Translations under genes and position numbers: made by a program
Notes under the pieces: generated by a model
The model's input: the letters and a program-made list of their open reading frames with translations, nothing else
What the model was told of the DNA's origin: nothing
Databases searched by the model: none
Virus record (IMG/VR): IMGVR_UViG_3300035698_021910
Location: 1-13,907 of that record
Direction: 5' to 3' (one strand)
Origin: a virus
Length of the DNA stretch: 13,907 nucleotides
Shown: piece by piece, positions 1,546 to 13,907 of the stretch
Position numbering within the stretch: position 1 is the stretch's first letter
Layout: each line of letters begins with the position of its first letter

Positions 1546-1589
1546 ATGTTGGTTTTTTTATGTGAGAGTTATCCCCCTCATCTATTATT

Positions 1590-1617
1590 ATTATATCATA
1601 TCGGTTACCGATGTCAA
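1590..1617 (-). promoter_or_regulatory. Consensus sigma70-type promoter (minus strand) with a palindromic operator in the spacer
   Basis: The minus strand reads TTGACA (1617-1612), a 16-nt spacer, then TGaTATAAT (extended -10; TATAAT = 1595-1590). The 13-bp palindrome ATCGGT-T-ACCGAT (1600-1612) fills the spacer. It lies about 45 nt upstream of the ATG at 1545. Confidence 0.65.
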
Positions 1618-1627
1618 GCGTTTCAAC

Positions 1628-1636
1628 TGTGGATAA
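1628..1636. promoter_or_regulatory. Perfect DnaA box (TGTGGATAA, reverse complement of TTATCCACA), 10 nt upstream of the -35 hexamer
   Basis: Exact 9-mer match to the bacterial DnaA-box consensus, located in the 240-bp intergenic region 1546-1785. Confidence 0.55.
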
Positions 1637-1683
1637 GTAACCGCAACAGTTACCGAAGTATCAGACACTTCTATAATAAAAGA

Positions 1684-8786: not shown

Positions 8787-10178
8787 TTAATTATTATTTT
8801 GCGGTTCTACTTTTGGCGGAATTTTTACGGGTATATTTTCTTCAAACAATTTTTTTTCCTCAAGAATTAAAGCAAGTTTTTCTTCGGCATTTTCAACGCC
8901 TCTTAATTCGTCAATAGCATCTCTGTGCGAGATTAAGTCATTTTCGGTCATTTTAACATATTGATCAACACGCTCATCATTATCTTGAACCAAAAAAGGT
9001 TGATAGATTGGGTCAGTATTGTAAACACTTTCTTTATATTTATAACTGAGGATAGCATGATTTAATTCTCTAAAAGCCTTATCCCACTTTAACCTTAAAA
9101 ATCCGATTAAATCCATCATATCAGAATATTGATAAGTTAAAGATTTACCACTAACATTTGATTTTATACTTCCTGCACTGTGAACAATACCAGTTTTATT
9201 AATTATTCTTTTTTCAATAACATCAAGCCAACCGACAATTTCCCGACCCTCTTTTAATTCAAGATATTTCATATCATCATCAACGCCAAGTCTAGTCTGT
9301 TTTTTTCGTCCTCTTTTAATACTTTTACTTTCCGCCATAGCAGATTTTATCAACAAATGCGGGTCAGTATTTTCCTCAATTCGTTTATCATAATTTGATG
9401 AATTTCTATTATAAGCACGATCTAATTCAGAAAGTAATTTAGTTTTTGGGATACCCTCATGACTATGAGGTTTTGGACTATTAGGTATCCAAGAGAACGG
9501 AATAAAATTATATTTATTAGTTTCAGTATGAATTTTTTCAGCATTTTCATCTATAATAATTATTTGGTGTAAATCATAATAAGTAATTCTATATTTAGAT
9601 TTTCCTATATATTCTTTATAAGCAAATTGTACCAGTTGCCCTTTATCCCAACCAAGATAGCATTTTGTGGGGTCTAATGAAAAAATATTTGCCCTTTTTG
9701 TGATTGGGTCAACGGGATAATATAAACAGCCAGCACCACCAACAAAAAAATTCAAAGATTGTTCATTTAGAATATCAGGAATATGATTTGTTTGATAAAT
9801 TTCTAAAATTTCATCTTCAAATTTTCTATTTAAAGCCTTGTTAGTTTCTTTAACTTTTACGCCGATTTCAAGTACACCAGTATGAGGATTTCTAGGAAAA
9901 AGACGGGCAATATATCTCGACACATATTCTTCGGTAAAATTAAAAGTCAAACATTTTTCATTTTCAGAATCTTTTATATTTAATTCACTGGAAGTCCATT
10001 GTTTACTTTCTAAAACAAAATCCATTAGAGCAGAAAATTCCGCGGACCTTTTTCTAGTTTGGTCACTAGCAAATTTAAGAAAATTATTAACAAATTCCCT
10101 TGAATTGCCAGAAAAATCAAGACTATTAGTTTTGTTTAATTCATTGCTTTTATTAAAAAGATAATTCAAAATTGACAT
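8787..10178 (-). CDS. Portal protein (463 aa)
   Basis: ORF track. Size and position are canonical (immediately after terL and before scaffold and capsid). No diagnostic motif recognised by eye. Confidence 0.7.
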   Translation of the reverse strand: MSILNYLFNKSNELNKTNSLDFSGNSREFVNNFLKFASDQTRKRSAEFSALMDFVLESKQWTSSELNIKDSENEKCLTFNFTEEYVSRYIARLFPRNPHTGVLEIGVKVKETNKALNRKFEDEILEIYQTNHIPDILNEQSLNFFVGGAGCLYYPVDPITKRANIFSLDPTKCYLGWDKGQLVQFAYKEYIGKSKYRITYYDLHQIIIIDENAEKIHTETNKYNFIPFSWIPNSPKPHSHEGIPKTKLLSELDRAYNRNSSNYDKRIEENTDPHLLIKSAMAESKSIKRGRKKQTRLGVDDDMKYLELKEGREIVGWLDVIEKRIINKTGIVHSAGSIKSNVSGKSLTYQYSDMMDLIGFLRLKWDKAFRELNHAILSYKYKESVYNTDPIYQPFLVQDNDERVDQYVKMTENDLISHRDAIDELRGVENAEEKLALILEEKKLFEENIPVKIPPKVEPQNNN

Positions 10179-10224: not shown

Positions 10225-11589
10225 TTAACCGTCAACAGTTCCATAAGTATTAGTTATAACAGGAATTTTAGAGCAAGCAACAGCTAAAGCCATTAAATTA
10301 TCAGTCTCAAGATTTCCGTCGGCTCGTTGGTAAGTGGTCATTTCGTCGGCAAGTTCGGGAATATAAGGAGATTGAATTAATCCACCGTCAATAACAGCCT
10401 GAAGATGATCAAGCAAAAAATCTTTATTTCCACCACGGAAATCGACGGGGTGGACTACATCCATACACATTTCCCACAAAGTATCACCGACACCAGTACT
10501 ATCCATAAAAGATTGAGAACCACTTTCAAGTTGGGCGGTCCTAATTTCTTTTTCCATAGACGACGGAGCTTTGATTTCATTTTCTTTATTAAAATTTTCA
10601 CGTCCTTTTTCAGTCCAAGGTAATTGAAAAGCCCAACGCTTAACTATTTTATAAGGTTTTTTTCCTTTTAGAATACGGAAGCCAACAGTTTGGTCAGATA
10701 AACTTCCACGACGACCACGTGCTAAATCCCAACCCTCAATATAATCATAACCATTTTCAACAATATCAGTTAAATCAAGTTTATTATTGAAAAGTTTATC
10801 AACTCTTGAGGCAAACATCATTTCAGCAGTATCAATAAATTTTCCTTTGACAATTTGGTCTATTTTATTTTTACTCCAAGTTGAACAAAGATAATCAAAA
10901 AGTTTATGATCAATATGTGGATTTTCATAGGAAGTACCGCCACGAATAAATCCGCCTTTCCTTTCAATATCATTTTTAATTCGATAATAAGAATTAAAAC
11001 CTTTTGGCGTGGCATAAAAATCAAGTTGGCTATCTTTCCATTTTCTAGTCCTAGGAAGCAAAATTTTTTCGCGAATAAATTCAAGGTGTCTTTCGAGAGC
11101 AATTTCGTCAGCGGAAATATAACCGTATTCTTTACCCTCAATACTTTCACCTTTTCTTTTAGTGGTTTTAAATTCGGTACAAGCACCATTTTTGAAACGG
11201 ATTTGAGGGTAAGGATGATGAACAACATCTTTTTTAATATCACAAAACCAAGTACCAAGTAAGGGACTATGAGAAATTAAAGCAATCATTCGTTCGAGTA
11301 CAAGCTCTGATAATTCTTGAGTAATAGCAACATTTAAAGTTTTATATTTTTCACAATCAAGATAATGATACAATAAAAATCTCAAATGCTTTTTAGCAAT
11401 AACATCAGTTTTGCCCCAACCATTGCCCGGATGCAATAAATTTTCTTTTTTAGTAGAATTTTTAAGCCAATCTAATTGTCCCGGATGACTTTTATAATCA
11501 AGAACCAAATCATCAAAAGCAGACCAATCATTGTCAGTTTCAATAAGTTTCAAAGAGAAAGCTATAATATTTAATATTTTTTTATTCAT
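10225..11589 (-). CDS. terL: Terminase large subunit
   Basis: ORF track (454 aa). Walker A-like HPGNGWGKTD, Walker B-like GYISADEIA, YATPKG coupling-type motif, and C-terminal nuclease-type acidic motifs GWDLARG, MDSTGVGD and ETDNLMA. Confidence 0.9.
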   Translation of the reverse strand: MNKKILNIIAFSLKLIETDNDWSAFDDLVLDYKSHPGQLDWLKNSTKKENLLHPGNGWGKTDVIAKKHLRFLLYHYLDCEKYKTLNVAITQELSELVLERMIALISHSPLLGTWFCDIKKDVVHHPYPQIRFKNGACTEFKTTKRKGESIEGKEYGYISADEIALERHLEFIREKILLPRTRKWKDSQLDFYATPKGFNSYYRIKNDIERKGGFIRGGTSYENPHIDHKLFDYLCSTWSKNKIDQIVKGKFIDTAEMMFASRVDKLFNNKLDLTDIVENGYDYIEGWDLARGRRGSLSDQTVGFRILKGKKPYKIVKRWAFQLPWTEKGRENFNKENEIKAPSSMEKEIRTAQLESGSQSFMDSTGVGDTLWEMCMDVVHPVDFRGGNKDFLLDHLQAVIDGGLIQSPYIPELADEMTTYQRADGNLETDNLMALAVACSKIPVITNTYGTVDG

Positions 11590-11626
11590 TTTTTTAAAAG
11601 TAAAAAAATTATTTCTTCGATAGATT

Positions 11627-11710
11627 TTTGAGTTTTTTTTAAAGATGAAAAGTGAAAAAAGCGTTTGAGTTTTTTTTTAAAAATGAAAAGTAAAAAAGCG
11701 TTTGAGTTTT
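11627..11710. repeat. 2.3 tandem copies of a 37-bp repeat just upstream of the terL start
   Basis: Copies are TTTGAGTTTTTTTTAAAGATGAAAAGTGAAAAAAGCG (11627-11663), TTTGAGTTTTTTTTTAAAAATGAAAAGTAAAAAAGCG (11664-11700) and a partial TTTGAGTTTT (11701-11710). Confidence 0.85.
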
Positions 11711-11780
11711 CTCCGAAATCTTAATATATATAACACCCCCACTCTTTTGTTTTTGCTTTTTAAACATTAAACATTCAATA

Positions 11781-11960
11781 TTTAAACATTTAAACATTCA
11801 AGTTTCAACATTTAAACATTTAAACATTCAAGTTTCAACATTTAAACATTTAAACATTCAAGTTTCAACATTTAAACATTAAAACATTCAAGTTTCAACA
11901 TTTAAACATTAAAACATTCAAGTTTCAACATTTAAACATTAAAACATTCAAGTTTCAACA
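11781..11960. repeat. Six head-to-tail copies of a 30-bp unit (iteron-like array)
   Basis: The unit is TTTAAACATT(T/A)AAACATTCAAGTTTCAACA. Copies 1-3 carry T at unit position 11 and copies 4-6 carry A; otherwise they are identical. A degenerate partial copy lies at about 11759-11780. Each unit holds three AACATT hexamers spaced 8 and 14 nt apart. There are no spacers, so it is not a CRISPR array. Confidence 0.95.
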
Positions 11961-12160
11961 TTAAAGATTAAATAAGATGAAGATATAACAAACAAAGTTA
12001 AATAACATCATTAAATACAATATTGATATTGTACTTAATACTATTAAATAAGATAATAATACAACAAGATTAACAAAATTTAATAAACAAGACATAAATA
12101 ATACTAATTAATATACTATATATAGCCATACAAACAAGTAATATGTAACAATATATAGTA
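11961..12160. other. Extremely AT-rich, A-biased tract; candidate DNA-unwinding or bent region
   Basis: A manual count gives about 14 G and 19 C in 200 nt (about 16-17% GC). A greatly exceeds T on the plus strand, opposite to the coding regions, where the plus strand is T-rich. It directly abuts the 30-bp array. Confidence 0.5.
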
Positions 12161-12332
12161 ATACCACACCGCCCGACATTCAATTCACCTAATAGTCAAG
12201 ACTAAACCGCCCAACATTCAATCTTCCTAAGCACTAATATAGCTTAATATTGCCACAAAAGCTATGAATATATAACAATATAAAGCGATACCACTCCGCC
12301 AAATTACTGATTGACCTAATAACTAAGATTAA
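12138..12332. repeat. Degenerate ~67-bp direct repeat (12138-12205 and 12266-12332) with an extra half-copy (12204-12237), each carrying a CCGCC(C) core
   Basis: ATACCACACCGCCCGACATTCAATTCACCTAATAGTCAAGACTAA aligned with ATACCACTCCGCCAAATTACTGATTGACCTAATAACTAAGATTAA gives 31/45 identical without gaps, by hand. AACCGCCCAACATTCAATCTTCCTAAGCACTAA is a third related site. Confidence 0.6.
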
Positions 12333-12371
12333 TCCGAATAGAACTTCAAATGGATTAACTCCAAAAAGGAT

Positions 12372-12448
12372 GTCTAATTTGATACTCTTTTTACAACTCC
12401 CTCTTCACTTGAAAGTGAACCCGTTGTAAAAAGAGTATCAAATTAGAC
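12372..12448. repeat. Perfect 26-bp inverted repeat (77-nt hairpin or cruciform) with a nested mini-hairpin in the loop
   Basis: GTCTAATTTGATACTCTTTTTACAAC (12372-12397) is the exact reverse complement of GTTGTAAAAAGAGTATCAAATTAGAC (12423-12448). The 25-nt loop contains TTCACT-tgaa-AGTGAA (12404-12419). Confidence 0.95.
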
Positions 12449-12501
12449 TTTATCACTGCGGGATTAGCTCTAATGCTTCCTATTCTGCAATGGTTAGGCA
12501 T

Positions 12502-12527
12502 CATCGCATAATGTATATTAAGCGAAG
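12502..12527. promoter_or_regulatory. Imperfect 26-bp palindrome, copy 1 (CATCGCATAAT-gtat-ATTAAGCGAAG)
   Basis: It is self-complementary and also complementary to copy 2: 12505-12528 against 12621-12644 gives 24 bp with one G.T position. It is followed by TAGCC, as copy 2 is followed by AAGCC. Confidence 0.6.
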
Positions 12528-12621
12528 TAGCCTCAAACTTTAACTTTATTTAAAACTATATCGCGGGGCATTTAACTATAAGATATTACATATCATTTAC
12601 TAAAAAATAAAGCAGTACTAA

Positions 12622-12647
12622 CTTCGCTTAATATGCATTATGCGAAG
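12622..12647. promoter_or_regulatory. Imperfect 26-bp palindrome, copy 2 (CTTCGCTTAAT-atgc-ATTATGCGAAG)
   Basis: Same architecture as copy 1, with centres 120 bp apart. Direct alignment of the 28-nt cores gives 22/28 identity by hand. Confidence 0.6.
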
Positions 12648-12816
12648 AAGCCCACTTTTAACTGCCTGCGTGTACTCTGTTCTTTTACTGTTTATCTAGT
12701 TGGCTTCTGCTAGCTCGTTTTCTTTTGCAAATTTCCTGCTTAGCCAATTCCATATGTGAGAAATTTAAACTTAAATTTAACAAGAAAACTTTTTTTATTC
12801 CTGCCTCGTGTCATTT

Positions 12817-12888
12817 GTAGCTACCGCCCCCCGGTCTTTCCGCCCTGCGGGCGATATTACTTGCTCGTCCCTACTTCCTGCCGGGGCG
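12817..12888. ncRNA. GC-rich nested stem-loop element; candidate structured RNA of unknown class and undetermined strand
   Basis: Palindrome GTAGCTAC (12817-12824). Outer helix CGCCCC (12825-12830) with GGGGCG (12883-12888), or the alternative register CCCCGG with CCGGGG. Inner hairpin CGCCC-tgc-GGGCG (12841-12853). An alternative GGGCGA/TCGTCCC pairing is also possible. Local GC is about double the genome average. Confidence 0.35.
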
Positions 12889-13024
12889 AACTCATCATTC
12901 ATTCCAGCTAGTATTTATTGCAATTTTTTATTTTCAATTAGTCCAAGTCTTTTAATTAAAGGTTATTTACACAACTGCTAAAACTTTTGTGCTTTTAAAA
13001 ACTATCCCTTTTGTTGCACACAAA

Positions 13025-13564
13025 TTAAGTTTTAAATAAAACTGCCTGCTCATTCATTTGTAATCCGTATTTATCAGTCGCTTTTTGGAATACAGCTAGA
13101 ACATCTTTATTGTCTAAATTGTCGCCCTGTAATATTTGATAACGGATTTTAGCTAATTTTTCTAAATCAGAAATATCAATTTTATAGCTATTAGTATTCA
13201 TGGCATTTAAAATTTTATCATAAGCTAGATCAAGTAATTGAACAGTTTTTTGTAGATGAACTGATTGACTGGTGATTTCCTCGAGCGTCTCATTCTTAAT
13301 AATTTTAGTTGCTACATTTCTTTTATAATCAGCATAATTTTTAAAATGACGACATAGGCTAGCAGGCGAAACGCTATAACCAAACTGCTCCGAACACGCA
13401 ATAACTATCTCATCAAATGTTTTCCCGTTTTTTCTTAATTTATGAATTTCAGGTAAATAGCCAGAGTTACAGATTGAACAACGAGCGTCGCATATCTTTT
13501 CGTCAATTCCGCAAGATTTAAGTTGAGAGTCGATTGTTTTTTTTTCTTCGATAGTTTTATTCAT
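13025..13564 (-). CDS. Cys4 + helix-turn-helix DNA-binding protein (179 aa); small-terminase-like or replication/packaging initiator candidate
   Basis: ORF track. N-terminal CX6CX3CX2C cluster, an HTH-like segment GKTFDEIVIACSEQFGYSVSPASLCRHFKNY, and a helical C-terminal half. It is upstream of terL on the same strand but separated from it by 1.43 kb. Confidence 0.4.
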   Translation of the reverse strand: MNKTIEEKKTIDSQLKSCGIDEKICDARCSICNSGYLPEIHKLRKNGKTFDEIVIACSEQFGYSVSPASLCRHFKNYADYKRNVATKIIKNETLEEITSQSVHLQKTVQLLDLAYDKILNAMNTNSYKIDISDLEKLAKIRYQILQGDNLDNKDVLAVFQKATDKYGLQMNEQAVLFKT

Positions 13565-13672
13565 TGTTGAAAGTTATCCACAGCCCTTAGTGAGCGAGTT
13601 TAAAAAAGTGAGAATGATAATGATAGTTATTACTTTAGTAAGTTAGTAGTTAGTTAGTAAGTAACTAACTTA

Positions 13673-13701
13673 AGAGTAACTTTAATTTTGGGATTTGTCA
13701 A
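13673..13701 (-). promoter_or_regulatory. Candidate sigma70-type promoter for the terS-like gene
   Basis: The minus strand reads TTGACA (13701-13696), a 17-nt spacer, then TACTCT (13678-13673; only T1, A2 and T6 match the consensus). A DnaA box lies 3 nt upstream of the -35. Confidence 0.35.
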
Positions 13702-13778
13702 GCCTGTGGAAAAGGGGCTTATTTATCCACCTACTTATCCACAAGGACTAATCCCATAATTTGGGACCTATAAGAATG

Positions 13779-13810
13779 GGGGGCTAAATTTATTATAATG
13801 ATTAGCCCCC
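13779..13810 (-). terminator. GC-capped 9-bp hairpin at the end of the minus-strand gene series
   Basis: GGGGGCTAA (13779-13787), a 14-nt loop, TTAGCCCCC (13802-13810). On the minus strand it follows the stop of CDS 64..279 (across the circular junction) and is followed by AUUCUUAU. Copy 1 (1-30) is truncated by the window edge. Confidence 0.5.
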
Positions 13811-13907
13811 TGTCTTGTCAAATCTTTTCTACAAGATTTTTTGTTAATATTGTTGTGGATAACCTCCGCCATTATTTTGGTTTCCGTTGTTCTGATTTTG
13901 GTTGCCA
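13781..13907. repeat. Terminal direct repeat, copy 2 (exact duplicate of 1-127)
   Basis: Identical 127 nt. It includes the 3' part of the same CDS as 64..127, so it is not an independent gene. Confidence 0.9.
13792..13821 (-). promoter_or_regulatory. Near-consensus sigma70-type promoter embedded in the hairpin (also at 12-41)
   Basis: The minus strand reads TTGACA (13821-13816), an 18-nt spacer, then TATAAT (13797-13792). The -10 hexamer lies in the loop of the 13779-13810 hairpin. Confidence 0.45.

Follow-up and report, generated by a model that had tools for sequence, protein, structure and literature searches.

How a tailed phage without recognisable replication genes is copied, and how it orders early and late expression, is the question touched by a cluster of DnaA boxes in the viral DNA analysed here (hereafter the window, 13,907 nt). 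Tailed phages without replication genes are rare. The unique genome is a 13,780-bp circle, positions 1–127 repeating 13781–13907, and every gene on it lies on one strand (minus). Searches against Pfam, PHROGs and NCBIfam returned TerL, portal, scaffold, an SU10-type capsid and an M23/LysM lysin; no polymerase, primase, helicase, Rep or integrase was detected in the window with these three collections, and the claim of the first-pass annotation that the phage encodes no replication proteins therefore holds at profile level. With no detectable replication gene, the phage must somewhere have an origin that is driven by the host. GC skew was without information as an origin marker, because with all genes on one strand it runs nearly monotonically across the genome. 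Shine–Dalgarno motifs are absent from the genes of this genome, no tRNA genes were found in the window, and no known RNA families were found in the window and eight relatives.

The GenBank phage collection held no named relative by DNA or by protein, and the family comparison was made on a set of 33 non-redundant related genomes (291 kb). Relatives occur in genome bins of Patescibacteria, which are ultra-small and mostly uncultured bacteria with small genomes, and the phage host is probably also a member of this group, an assignment made only via the binning of relatives with Patescibacteria genomes. Two relatives share a bin and have similar coverage there, as would suit carriage as an episome. 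A Pfam search for replication genes in the 112 accessory ORF clusters of the phage family gave HTH_36/DnaD_N-like matches only, and these were traced to the lineage of two distant relatives, L018 and L019, where the gene lies directly upstream of tandem boxes; this hints at a replication role in those two relatives.

The perfect 9-mer TTATCCACA occurs at four unique sites, 13574 and 13735 on the plus strand and 13854 and 1628 on the minus strand, a further minus-strand match at 74 being the same site as 13854 because 1–127 repeats 13781–13907. All of these coordinates had been reported correctly, as had the two near-consensus boxes with one mismatch each (13705, minus strand, TTTTCCACA; 13723, plus strand, TTATCCACC), of which the former obeys the relaxed consensus TTWTNCACA and the latter deviates from it at the last base. 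Against four perfect boxes, 0.16 were expected (earlier rough estimate, about 0.2), and the observed count was reached in 0 of 200 shuffles; the relaxed consensus gave 11 matches in the window vs 3.0 expected. The five boxes placed within 290 bp by the annotation span 289 nt, and in a scan statistic with a window of that size neither five boxes (at most one mismatch) nor three perfect ones were reached in any of 1000 dinucleotide shuffles. A chance or composition artefact was ruled out by these shuffles together with the family statistics given below. The elements of the region upstream of ORF179 are as follows, in the direction of transcription:

13854–13862 (= 74–82), minus strand: DnaA box E, perfect, within the last ORF71 codons and 32 nt upstream of the P1 -35
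13792–13821, minus strand: promoter P1, 12/12 match, TTGACA-18-TATAAT, with its -10 in the loop of the terminator hairpin
13779–13810, minus strand: terminator hairpin GGGGGCTAA...TTAGCCCCC, which ends the upstream operon
13735–13743, minus strand: DnaA box A, perfect, TGTGGATAA on the gene strand, between P1 and P2
13723–13731, minus strand: DnaA box B, reading GGTGGATAA on the gene strand with one mismatch, separated from box A by 3 bp
13705–13713, minus strand: DnaA box C, TTTTCCACA on the gene strand, fitting TTWTNCACA, 3 nt upstream of the P2 -35
13673–13701, minus strand: promoter P2, read from the sequence, with a perfect -35 (TTGACA, 13701–13696), a 17-nt spacer and a weak -10 (TACTCT, 13678–13673)
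13583–13667, minus strand: AT-rich 5' leader of ORF179, flanked by boxes, with a 5' hairpin AGTTAGTTA/TAACTAACT; its predicted start (13667) is placed by reference to the P2 -10
13574–13582, minus strand: DnaA box D, perfect, TGTGGATAA on the gene strand, located in the leader with 9 nt between it and the ORF179 ATG (13564)
13025–13564, minus strand: ORF179, first gene downstream of the boxes, with a Cys4/HTH N-terminus and a long helix

The product of ORF179 is a candidate small terminase (TerS-like): its best fold matches were to the G20c small terminase, at a non-significant E = 1.5, alongside a weak, below-cutoff match to a resolvase-type HTH; neither Pfam nor PHROGs gave a match, and PDB gave no usable sequence match. 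Together with TerL and the structural genes it forms the transcription unit downstream of P1/P2 and box D.

In the relatives, homologues of box A were found in L002, L004, L012, L028 and L035, and a box matching D in position and orientation is present in L002, L004, L028, L030, L035 and L038. In L027, a near-identical contig, the box B site is without mismatch, and the position of box C reads TTATACACA in L002, TTATGCACA in L004, TTATCCACA in L012 and TTTTCCACA in L035. Box E is absent from all relatives (including L002 and L004) save L027; lying within ORF71 codons and lacking in relatives, it may stand outside the conserved set. P1 is conserved in the alignment of relatives, as are the elements of P2 (TTGACAA and TACTCTTA), a promoter missed by the consensus promoter scan because its -10 matches at only 3/6 positions. 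The arms of the terminator hairpin differ yet stay complementary in L002, L004 and L022, and a T-run follows it in relatives. For the 5' hairpin of the leader, the RNA fold z-score in the window is a modest -2.3; both of its arms were seen by eye to be changed in L030 and L035, and RNAalifold returned no consensus pairs on the leader of the relatives, the alignment being poor.

Across the 33 genomes, 34 perfect boxes were counted vs 2.2 expected (~15-fold), of which 27 lie outside ORFs, a fraction that makes up 24% of the sequence. They recur at three sites, namely upstream of ORF179 homologues (~14), upstream of ORF94 homologues (~6) and just after the TerL stop (~10). The variants found at box positions in relatives (TTATGCACA, TTATACACA and TTTTCCACA) match the known degeneracy of DnaA boxes, and the family flank consensus is AG-TTATCCACA; the AG flank is also found at R1 and R4 of E. 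coli oriC. Enrichment, intergenic position, TTWTNCACA variants and flank make the identification of the 9-mers as DnaA boxes well supported at the level of sequence, and they are accordingly treated as predicted sites of the host DnaA, with the qualification that the consensus is a general bacterial one and may not be that of the host. It had also been asked of the boxes that they be conserved in related genomes, and they are kept at the ORF179 promoter, at the ORF94 promoter and after TerL.

This conservation is graded. Among the first 16 relatives with the upstream region available, 13 carry a box (at most one mismatch) at or near the ORF179 promoter and one further has a weak site at -258; most of the relatives examined later likewise carry one. 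Box number at the locus varies (0–5), a single box is what about half of those relatives that have the control region keep there, and many have only one to three boxes per genome. No box within one mismatch was found at the ORF179 promoter of L010, L015 and L020, so DnaA control would be dispensable there; L007 and L014 do have a box, though their leader is nearly identical to that of the box-less L010.

The sites away from ORF179 lie 1.6 and 3.3 kb from the cluster. Upstream of ORF94, whose product is ArdC-N-like, the elements are:

1628–1636, minus strand: DnaA box F, perfect, forward relative to the genes, upstream of the ORF94 promoter -35 by 10 nt
1590–1617, minus strand: ORF94 promoter, 12/12 match plus TG extension, TTGACA-16-TGaTATAAT
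1569–1577, minus strand: GGGGGATAA, a weak box in reverse orientation with two mismatches, 12 nt past the ORF94 promoter -10; an alternative reading is that of a small hairpin's loop

A forward box 0–10 nt upstream of an ORF94-type promoter (its -35 or a near-match) was found in L002, L003, L004, L005, L022 and L030, and the position of the weak reverse box is occupied by AGTGGATAA, TGGGGATAA or TGTGGATAT in relatives. Orientation depends on the site, being forward in 6/6 boxes at the ORF94 promoter and reverse in 8/10 after TerL, which suggests that their geometry with respect to the promoter is constrained. For 13 of the 34 perfect family boxes, a TTGAC[AT] -35 hexamer starts 0–20 nt downstream on the gene strand (0.7 expected), and a second class of boxes, nearly always TGTGGATAAC, lies 1–15 nt past the -10, over the transcription start. 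Of the three best consensus promoters of the window, P1 and the ORF94 promoter have a box ~30 nt or less upstream of the -35, and the weaker-scoring P2 carries most boxes of the window. The distances given in the annotation proved right when read on the gene strand (minus): TTTTCCACA-ggc-TTGACA leaves 3 nt at P2, TTATCCACA-N10-TTGACA leaves 10 nt at 1628, and TGTGGATAA-N9-ATG precedes ORF179. Boxes are thus found inside or next to core promoter elements, as at DnaA-regulated promoters (3 nt at P2, 10 nt at the ORF94 promoter); what they mark is a set of promoters, not a single locus.

Placement of this kind bears on whether the motif is read by DnaA at all. It might be recognised by another DNA-binding protein of host or phage, or act as a signal at the RNA level, the latter being considered because TGTGGATAAC often precedes a start codon by 3–20 nt and the genome has no Shine–Dalgarno motifs. 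The start codons of ORF179, the post-TerL ORF and ORF94 homologues, genes that lack such motifs, are indeed closely preceded by reverse boxes, and the ORF94 box has its GGATAA core in a small hairpin loop, the arms of which vary between relatives but stay complementary (GGAGG/CCTCC, GGTGG/CCGCC). Against this stand the 34 exact matches to the universal DnaA consensus in both orientations, the forward boxes upstream of -35 elements in a region that is not transcribed, the restriction of the motif to these gene starts, and the failure to identify any phage DNA-binding regulator; a reader other than DnaA is therefore regarded as highly improbable.

The annotation had left three roles side by side, namely an origin, control of transcription and titration of DnaA. 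Control of transcription fits best, with boxes at the -35 or the start of three promoters, and the chance that host DnaA controls the main promoters of the phage through these 9-mers is put at about even on the basis of sequence. In the mechanism proposed, boxes A, B and C would act from their position between the tandem promoters P1 and P2, box C nearly abutting the P2 -35, box D from the transcribed leader before the first gene of the ORF179–TerL–structural unit, and box F from its place against the ORF94 promoter. Bound DnaA would hinder RNA polymerase by promoter occlusion, as a roadblock, or through a DNA loop that joins box D to the upstream boxes ~130 bp away, and the expression of packaging and structural genes would follow the level of free DnaA in the host. 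As every new phage genome brings four to six strong boxes, phage replication could titrate DnaA; with rising copy number the promoters would then be released, giving a replication-coupled switch without a phage-encoded regulator. DnaA binding, repression rather than activation and the titration timer are what we infer from the motif, its enrichment, its conservation and the promoter geometry. Boxes just upstream of a -35 could serve activation instead of repression, which the weak -10 of P2 would suit.

A box beside the -35 or over the start site is the usual mode of DnaA as a transcription factor (nrdAB, B. subtilis dnaA, sda), and in E. coli dnaA a DnaA box lies between the tandem promoters p1 and p2. 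The phage boxes resemble the latter arrangement in standing between or beside tandem sigma-70-type promoters that both transcribe into one gene. They differ from it, and from other host promoters, in that the target is a packaging and structural operon, that the device is reused at two more promoters, and that four or five strong boxes are involved. In phage lambda, DnaA stimulates transcription at pR, and DnaA-protected boxes lie downstream of pO (PMC3985674). There, too, boxes adjoin phage promoters and bound host DnaA alters replication-relevant transcription (PMC3985674); unlike the present family, in which no replication gene is recognisable, lambda encodes the initiator O and the helicase loader P, and its boxes are downstream of the promoters.

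Titration might also be the chief function, the boxes absorbing host DnaA as phage copies build up and blocking re-initiation by the host, as the datA locus, a DnaA sink, does in E. coli. Four to six predicted high-affinity boxes per 13.8-kb genome, at ~15 times chance family-wide, agree with such a sink, and a phage burst could outnumber the host boxes, given the small genomes of Patescibacteria. A sink, however, offers no reason for the precise placing at -35 elements and transcription starts or for the site-specific orientation, and many relatives have only one to three boxes; as a main role it is considered very unlikely. Titration would rather be a by-product of either a promoter or an origin role.

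Paired boxes are also known from T5-like phages, in which conserved DnaA boxes, in pairs 3 bp apart, lie in non-coding DNA and have no link to replication (bioRxiv 10.1101/866236). The same 3-bp gap separates boxes A and B, and consensus and near-consensus boxes in non-coding phage DNA recall the T5 injection-stop region, so that the pair might tether incoming DNA to membrane-bound DnaA. The T5 boxes, by contrast, are set within the long inverted repeats of an untranslated terminal region, whereas here they are promoter-linked, spread over three sites of a small genome whose assembly is circular and thus does not give its ends, and no long inverted repeat was found around boxes A/B in the window. 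As the T5 model is itself a proposal, an entry anchor of this type is scarcely credible for the present phage.

The remaining role, a DnaA-dependent origin mimicking oriC, would have host DnaA on boxes A–D open the AT-rich leader, which the convergent boxes C and D enclose, so that the host replisome copies the phage; transcription from P1/P2 may help the opening, and promoter control would be compatible with it. It would account for the lack of a replication gene in the window and in the 112 accessory ORF clusters, and it agrees with four strong boxes inside 170 bp, including the pair with a 3-bp gap. Boxes C and D are directed towards the AT-rich stretch, and a G+C-rich spacer precedes box D (CACTAAGGGC-TGTGGATAA); in E. 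coli oriC, box R1 likewise follows a G+C-rich spacer. The DnaD_N/HTH_36-like gene beside the tandem boxes of L018 and L019 and the pair of relatives in one Patescibacteria bin, as would fit an episome, point the same way. With oriC the region thus shares a box cluster, a tandem pair, an adjacent AT-rich stretch and a box after a G+C-rich spacer.

The tests run did not bear this reading out. The bacterial basal unwinding system consists of DnaA boxes, DnaA-trios and an AT-rich element (PMC8287927), and a search was made for correctly oriented sets of at least three DnaA-trios (3'-NAN-5') no more than 16 bp from a box, a rule taken from the same work (PMC8287927). None of boxes A–F passed, vs 45% of random genome positions, and a scripted search of the relatives gave trio matches at chance level only. 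The orientation used in the trio search was that of R1 in E. coli oriC. That boxes flank an AT-rich stretch was upheld; the stretch, however, is the conserved, transcribed leader of ORF179 with its 5' hairpin, and its duplex stability (13610–13690) is at the 95th percentile for low stability only, at least 12 other sites being less stable. Unlike oriC, the cluster is not family-wide, about half of the relatives having a single box and L010, L015 and L020 none (at most one mismatch), and the same boxes stand at two further promoters. Origins of mobile elements with DnaA as cofactor combine DnaA boxes, iterons and a Rep gene at one locus (P1 oriR, pSC101, F, RK2), and the pBR322 origin has a DnaA box. 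The phage shares with these the boxes for host DnaA and the presence of tandem repeats (11759–11969); unlike in iteron origins, no Rep is recognisable and the repeats are ~1.6 kb from the boxes. An origin at the box cluster is accordingly judged possible but doubtful.

In number, the four or five strong boxes exceed those of most DnaA-regulated promoters and are also origin-like. Both roles could be joined, the P1/P2 cluster being an oriC-like, transcription-coupled origin and the phage a DnaA-dependent episome in step with its host, which turns on its packaging genes when its own copies titrate DnaA and cedes both initiation and late timing to host DnaA; this fuller scheme is rather unlikely. 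Of conserved regulatory signals here, the motif is the only one, and each main promoter bears it. With conserved DnaA sites on its main promoters and no recognisable replication genes, the phage probably times its expression, and perhaps its replication, by the replication state of the host. If DnaA does control the promoters or fire an origin, the phage would be a minimal viral readout of the host cell cycle without a regulator of its own, and would provide a first handle on virus–host coupling in Patescibacteria.

For the phage family, the boxes and the neighbouring non-coding stretch before TerL mark two candidate places for an origin. This stretch is a better origin or pac candidate than the box cluster, which also argues against the oriC mimic: it is positionally conserved at 0.9–1.5 kb (1.4 kb in the window, 11590–13024) and contains tandem repeats and long hairpins. 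Hidden genes under another genetic code were rejected as its content, as no long ORF appeared in the 1.4-kb gap when any single stop codon was ignored. Its tandem repeats have a unit of 30 nt and lie on the far side of ORF179 from the boxes.

Exact copies of the 9-mer DnaA-box consensus TTATCCACA were confirmed at 13574(+), 13735(+), 13854(−) and 1628(−), position 74 being the same site as 13854, and one-mismatch copies at 13705(−) and 13723(+), all as reported in the first-pass annotation. Its rough expectation of about 0.2 perfect boxes was borne out by a computed value of 0.16, and the observed count was reached in 0/200 shuffles. The clustering it described also exceeded chance: with the genome treated as a circle, 0/1000 dinucleotide shuffles had as many as five boxes of zero or one mismatch in 289 nt, and 0/1000 had three perfect boxes per 289-nt window. 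The relaxed consensus TTWTNCACA gave 11 matches in the window (3.0 expected). All six strong boxes, A–F, are promoter-associated, since A–E flank P1 and P2, the tandem predicted promoters upstream of the TerS-like candidate ORF179, and F precedes the ORF94 promoter. The layout was read on the gene strand, from high to low coordinates.

ORF179 control region and ORF94 promoter in the window
13862–13854, minus, box E, inside the last codons of ORF71
13821–13816 and 13797–13792, minus, P1 (TTGACA and TATAAT; 12/12 consensus match)
13810–13779, minus, hairpin GGGGGCTAA/TTAGCCCCC, ending the upstream operon, P1 −10 in its loop
13752–13766, small palindrome TCCCAAATTATGGGA between P1 and box A
13743–13735, minus, box A, TGTGGATAA
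13731–13723, minus, box B, GGTGGATAA, 3 bp past box A
13713–13705, minus, box C, TTTTCCACA, 3 nt before the P2 −35
13701–13696 and 13678–13673, minus, P2 (TTGACA, 17-nt spacer, weak −10 TACTCT)
between P2 and box D, minus, AT-rich leader of about 85 nt
13582–13574, minus, box D, TGTGGATAA, ORF179 ATG 9 nt further
1636–1628, minus, box F, 10 nt upstream of the ORF94 promoter −35
1617–1590, minus, ORF94 promoter, TG-extended, the genome's other 12/12 promoter besides P1
1577–1569, minus, weak reverse box GGGGGATAA after the −10 of the ORF94 promoter

P1 is set within the terminator of the preceding operon (13779–13821, also 1–41), its −35 just upstream of the hairpin and TATAAT in the loop; with this overlap, read-through RNA would terminate and RNA started at P1 would be without the 5′ arm. 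In the related phage loci L002, L004 and L022, the hairpin arms have changed in sequence and retained complementarity. Between terminator and DnaA boxes, relatives carry TTTGTTCG direct repeats in 2–3 copies about 11 nt apart (L002 7730–7757, L004 2303–2330, equivalent positions of L012 and L022); the window lacks them at that place and has the palindrome TCCCAAATTATGGGA instead, and these elements may be a second, lineage-specific operator of the control region. GGTAACC-type palindromes around and within the ORF94 promoter spacer (window 1596–1660; at least six copies upstream in L003, 11170–11420) are probably an operator for another regulator.

Conservation in related genomes, a check named in the same annotation, was examined in 40 related loci collapsed to 33 non-redundant ones (291 kb). 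The boxes recur at homologous promoters, with 34 perfect copies against 2.2 expected, 27 of which lie outside ORFs of at least 50 aa, sequence that makes up 24% of the total. TTGAC[AT] begins 0–20 nt downstream of 13/34 (0.7 expected), and the flank consensus is AG-TTATCCACA. Orientation on the gene strand varied with the site, being forward in 6/6 boxes at ORF94, and reverse in 8/10 after TerL (large terminase) and in 11/14 before ORF179.

The ORF179 upstream control region is the sole non-coding part with detectable DNA similarity (71–74% to L002 and L004). A closer subgroup keeps the order upstream boxes, P2, leader of about 115 nt, reverse box and ATG, with the box variants TTATACACA, TTATGCACA, AGTGGATAA, GGTGGATAA and TGTGGAAAA; the variation of boxes at this promoter is of the kind seen in DnaA boxes. 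Distant relatives have one consensus box near the promoter, variable in position. The box lies 5–18 nt upstream of the −35, in either orientation, in L007, L009, L011, L014 and L039, within the spacer in L008 and directly after the −10 in L005; three boxes were counted in L016 and two in L019. No box within one mismatch was found at this promoter in L010, L015 and L020, L010 being boxless although its leader is almost identical to those of box-bearing L007 and L014. In the ~40 nt next to the promoter, the leader of L007, L009, L010, L011, L014, L017 and L020 opens with a polypurine run that is conserved (e.g. GAAAAAAAAAGAAAAGAGAAGCAGAAAAGAAAAG), followed by a partly complementary polypyrimidine run; the pair could form an RNA hairpin or be prone to R-loops or triplexes.

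At the promoter of ORF94 homologues, a forward box lies 0–10 nt upstream of the −35 or near-match in L002, L003, L004, L005, L022, L030 and the window. After TerL, a small ORF or the portal gene has a box between its start codon and a TG-extended −10 in L002, L003, L005, L006, L013 and L039, and upstream of the −35 instead in L007 and L016.

Motif, degeneracy, flanks and enrichment all fit host DnaA boxes, and at each of three independent loci the boxes sit on core elements of promoters, which is the look of DnaA-regulated promoters. Because of this fit, the repeated placement and the precedent of phage lambda, where DnaA acts at promoters of the phage (PMC3985674), the favoured reading is that host DnaA controls the main phage promoters, the boxes being its predicted operators. 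These operators are best read as varying a type of control already known. In E. coli, a DnaA box lies between the tandem promoters p1 and p2 of dnaA; phage boxes A–C likewise sit between P1 and P2. Boxes that cover the start of transcription or sit on the leader point to repression; activation would equally be allowed by P2, with its near-perfect −35, weak −10 and box 3 nt upstream. Plausibly, the boxes would form a titration timer: the few boxes of an entering phage would be bound by host DnaA, and as phage genomes multiplied there would be more boxes than DnaA, which would free the promoters of packaging and structural genes.

Bases 1–127 are repeated at 13781–13907, and the sequence is therefore a 13,780-bp circle. 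Every credible gene is on the minus strand, and the genetic code is the standard one; 18/20 genes stop at TAA, and a Shine–Dalgarno motif precedes almost no start.

Genes of the window assigned by profile search
10225–11589, minus, large terminase
8787–10178, minus, SPP1-type portal
minus, scaffold protein
minus, SU10-type major capsid protein
minus, lectin-fold protein
minus, M23/LysM lysin
1261–1545, minus, ORF94, marginal ArdC-N-like ssDNA-binding match, the sole match among the small ORFs

No polymerase, primase, helicase, Rep nuclease, initiator or integrase was detectable by profile searches of the window, in agreement with the earlier claim that replication proteins are absent. The phage thus needs a host-driven origin, and a DnaA-dependent one at the box cluster would be compatible with promoter control; it is considered unlikely. 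The cluster is unusually dense, and its converging boxes C and D flank an AT-rich stretch; this stretch, however, is the 5′ leader, conserved and carrying a hairpin at its 5′ end. In low duplex stability it ranks at the 95th percentile, at least 12 other sites of the genome being less stable. Box D is preceded by a G+C-rich spacer, as is R1 of E. coli oriC. The basal unwinding system combines a box with at least three DnaA-trios within 16 bp (PMC8287927), an arrangement found at 0 of boxes A–F against 45% of random positions in the same genome. The origin option of the first-pass annotation was rated lower, and its transcription-control option favoured. Relatives, all without replication genes, have zero to five boxes at the ORF179 locus, the same boxes are found again at other promoters, and a conserved array of DnaA boxes in a phage is not necessarily an origin, as phage T5 illustrates (bioRxiv 10.1101/866236). 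Pointing towards an origin, a DnaD_N/HTH_36-like gene (L019 257–781, L018 99–623) adjoins tandem boxes, directly upstream of these and the ORF179 homologue. Both loci are distant relatives of high GC (53–55%), and L019 forms one end of a 65.9-kb Moraniibacteriota contig and could therefore have been integrated there or mis-joined.

A better place to seek an origin or pac site is the stretch before TerL, which is ORF-free over 0.9–1.5 kb in every relative.

Elements between ORF179 and TerL in the window
11590–13024, ORF-free stretch (1.4 kb)
12497–12528 and 12621–12652, inverted repeat TTCGCATAAYGCATATT...AATATACGTTATGCGA (L002 8889–9015; L004 3170–3302; L001 106–260)
11759–11969, tandem array of seven 30-nt repeats immediately 5′ of TerL
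11627–11710, tandem array of 2.3 repeats of 37 nt, also immediately 5′ of TerL

Its position is kept and its sequence is not, blastn giving no alignment to relatives, and it matched no Rfam family. Conserved in sequence within this otherwise divergent stretch is the inverted repeat TTCGCATAAYGCATATT..GCGAAGT / ACTTCGC..AATATACGTTATGCGA, with 92–101 nt between the arms. Long near-perfect hairpins are frequent (e.g. a 26-bp stem at 12372–12448), and the gene-strand RNA fold of 12150–13024 gave z = −4.2 versus +0.3 for a coding control. The tandem repeats resemble iterons or sites bound by terminase; L002 has, in the corresponding position, four 39-nt copies whose sequence is unrelated. Since ORF179 has a Cys4/HTH head with a long helix, and a small terminase as the target of its best, non-significant fold matches, these hairpins and repeats could serve as pac sites, as an origin or as both; the stretch as a whole is a candidate for an origin, a pac region or a non-coding RNA. 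A recoded gene was ruled out, as stop-codon recoding does not make it coding.

Nothing similar to the window was found among GenBank phages. Relatives were found in IMG/VR, in metagenomes and as contigs of 13–15 kb in genome bins of Parcubacteria and Moraniibacteriota, which makes a patescibacterium the most likely host. L014 and L020 (contigs DAOVOJ010000021 and DAOVOJ010000022; coverage stated in their names 37.9 and 40.0) are two different family members in one Moraniibacteriota bin; at the ORF179 promoter, L014 has a DnaA box and L020 lacks one.
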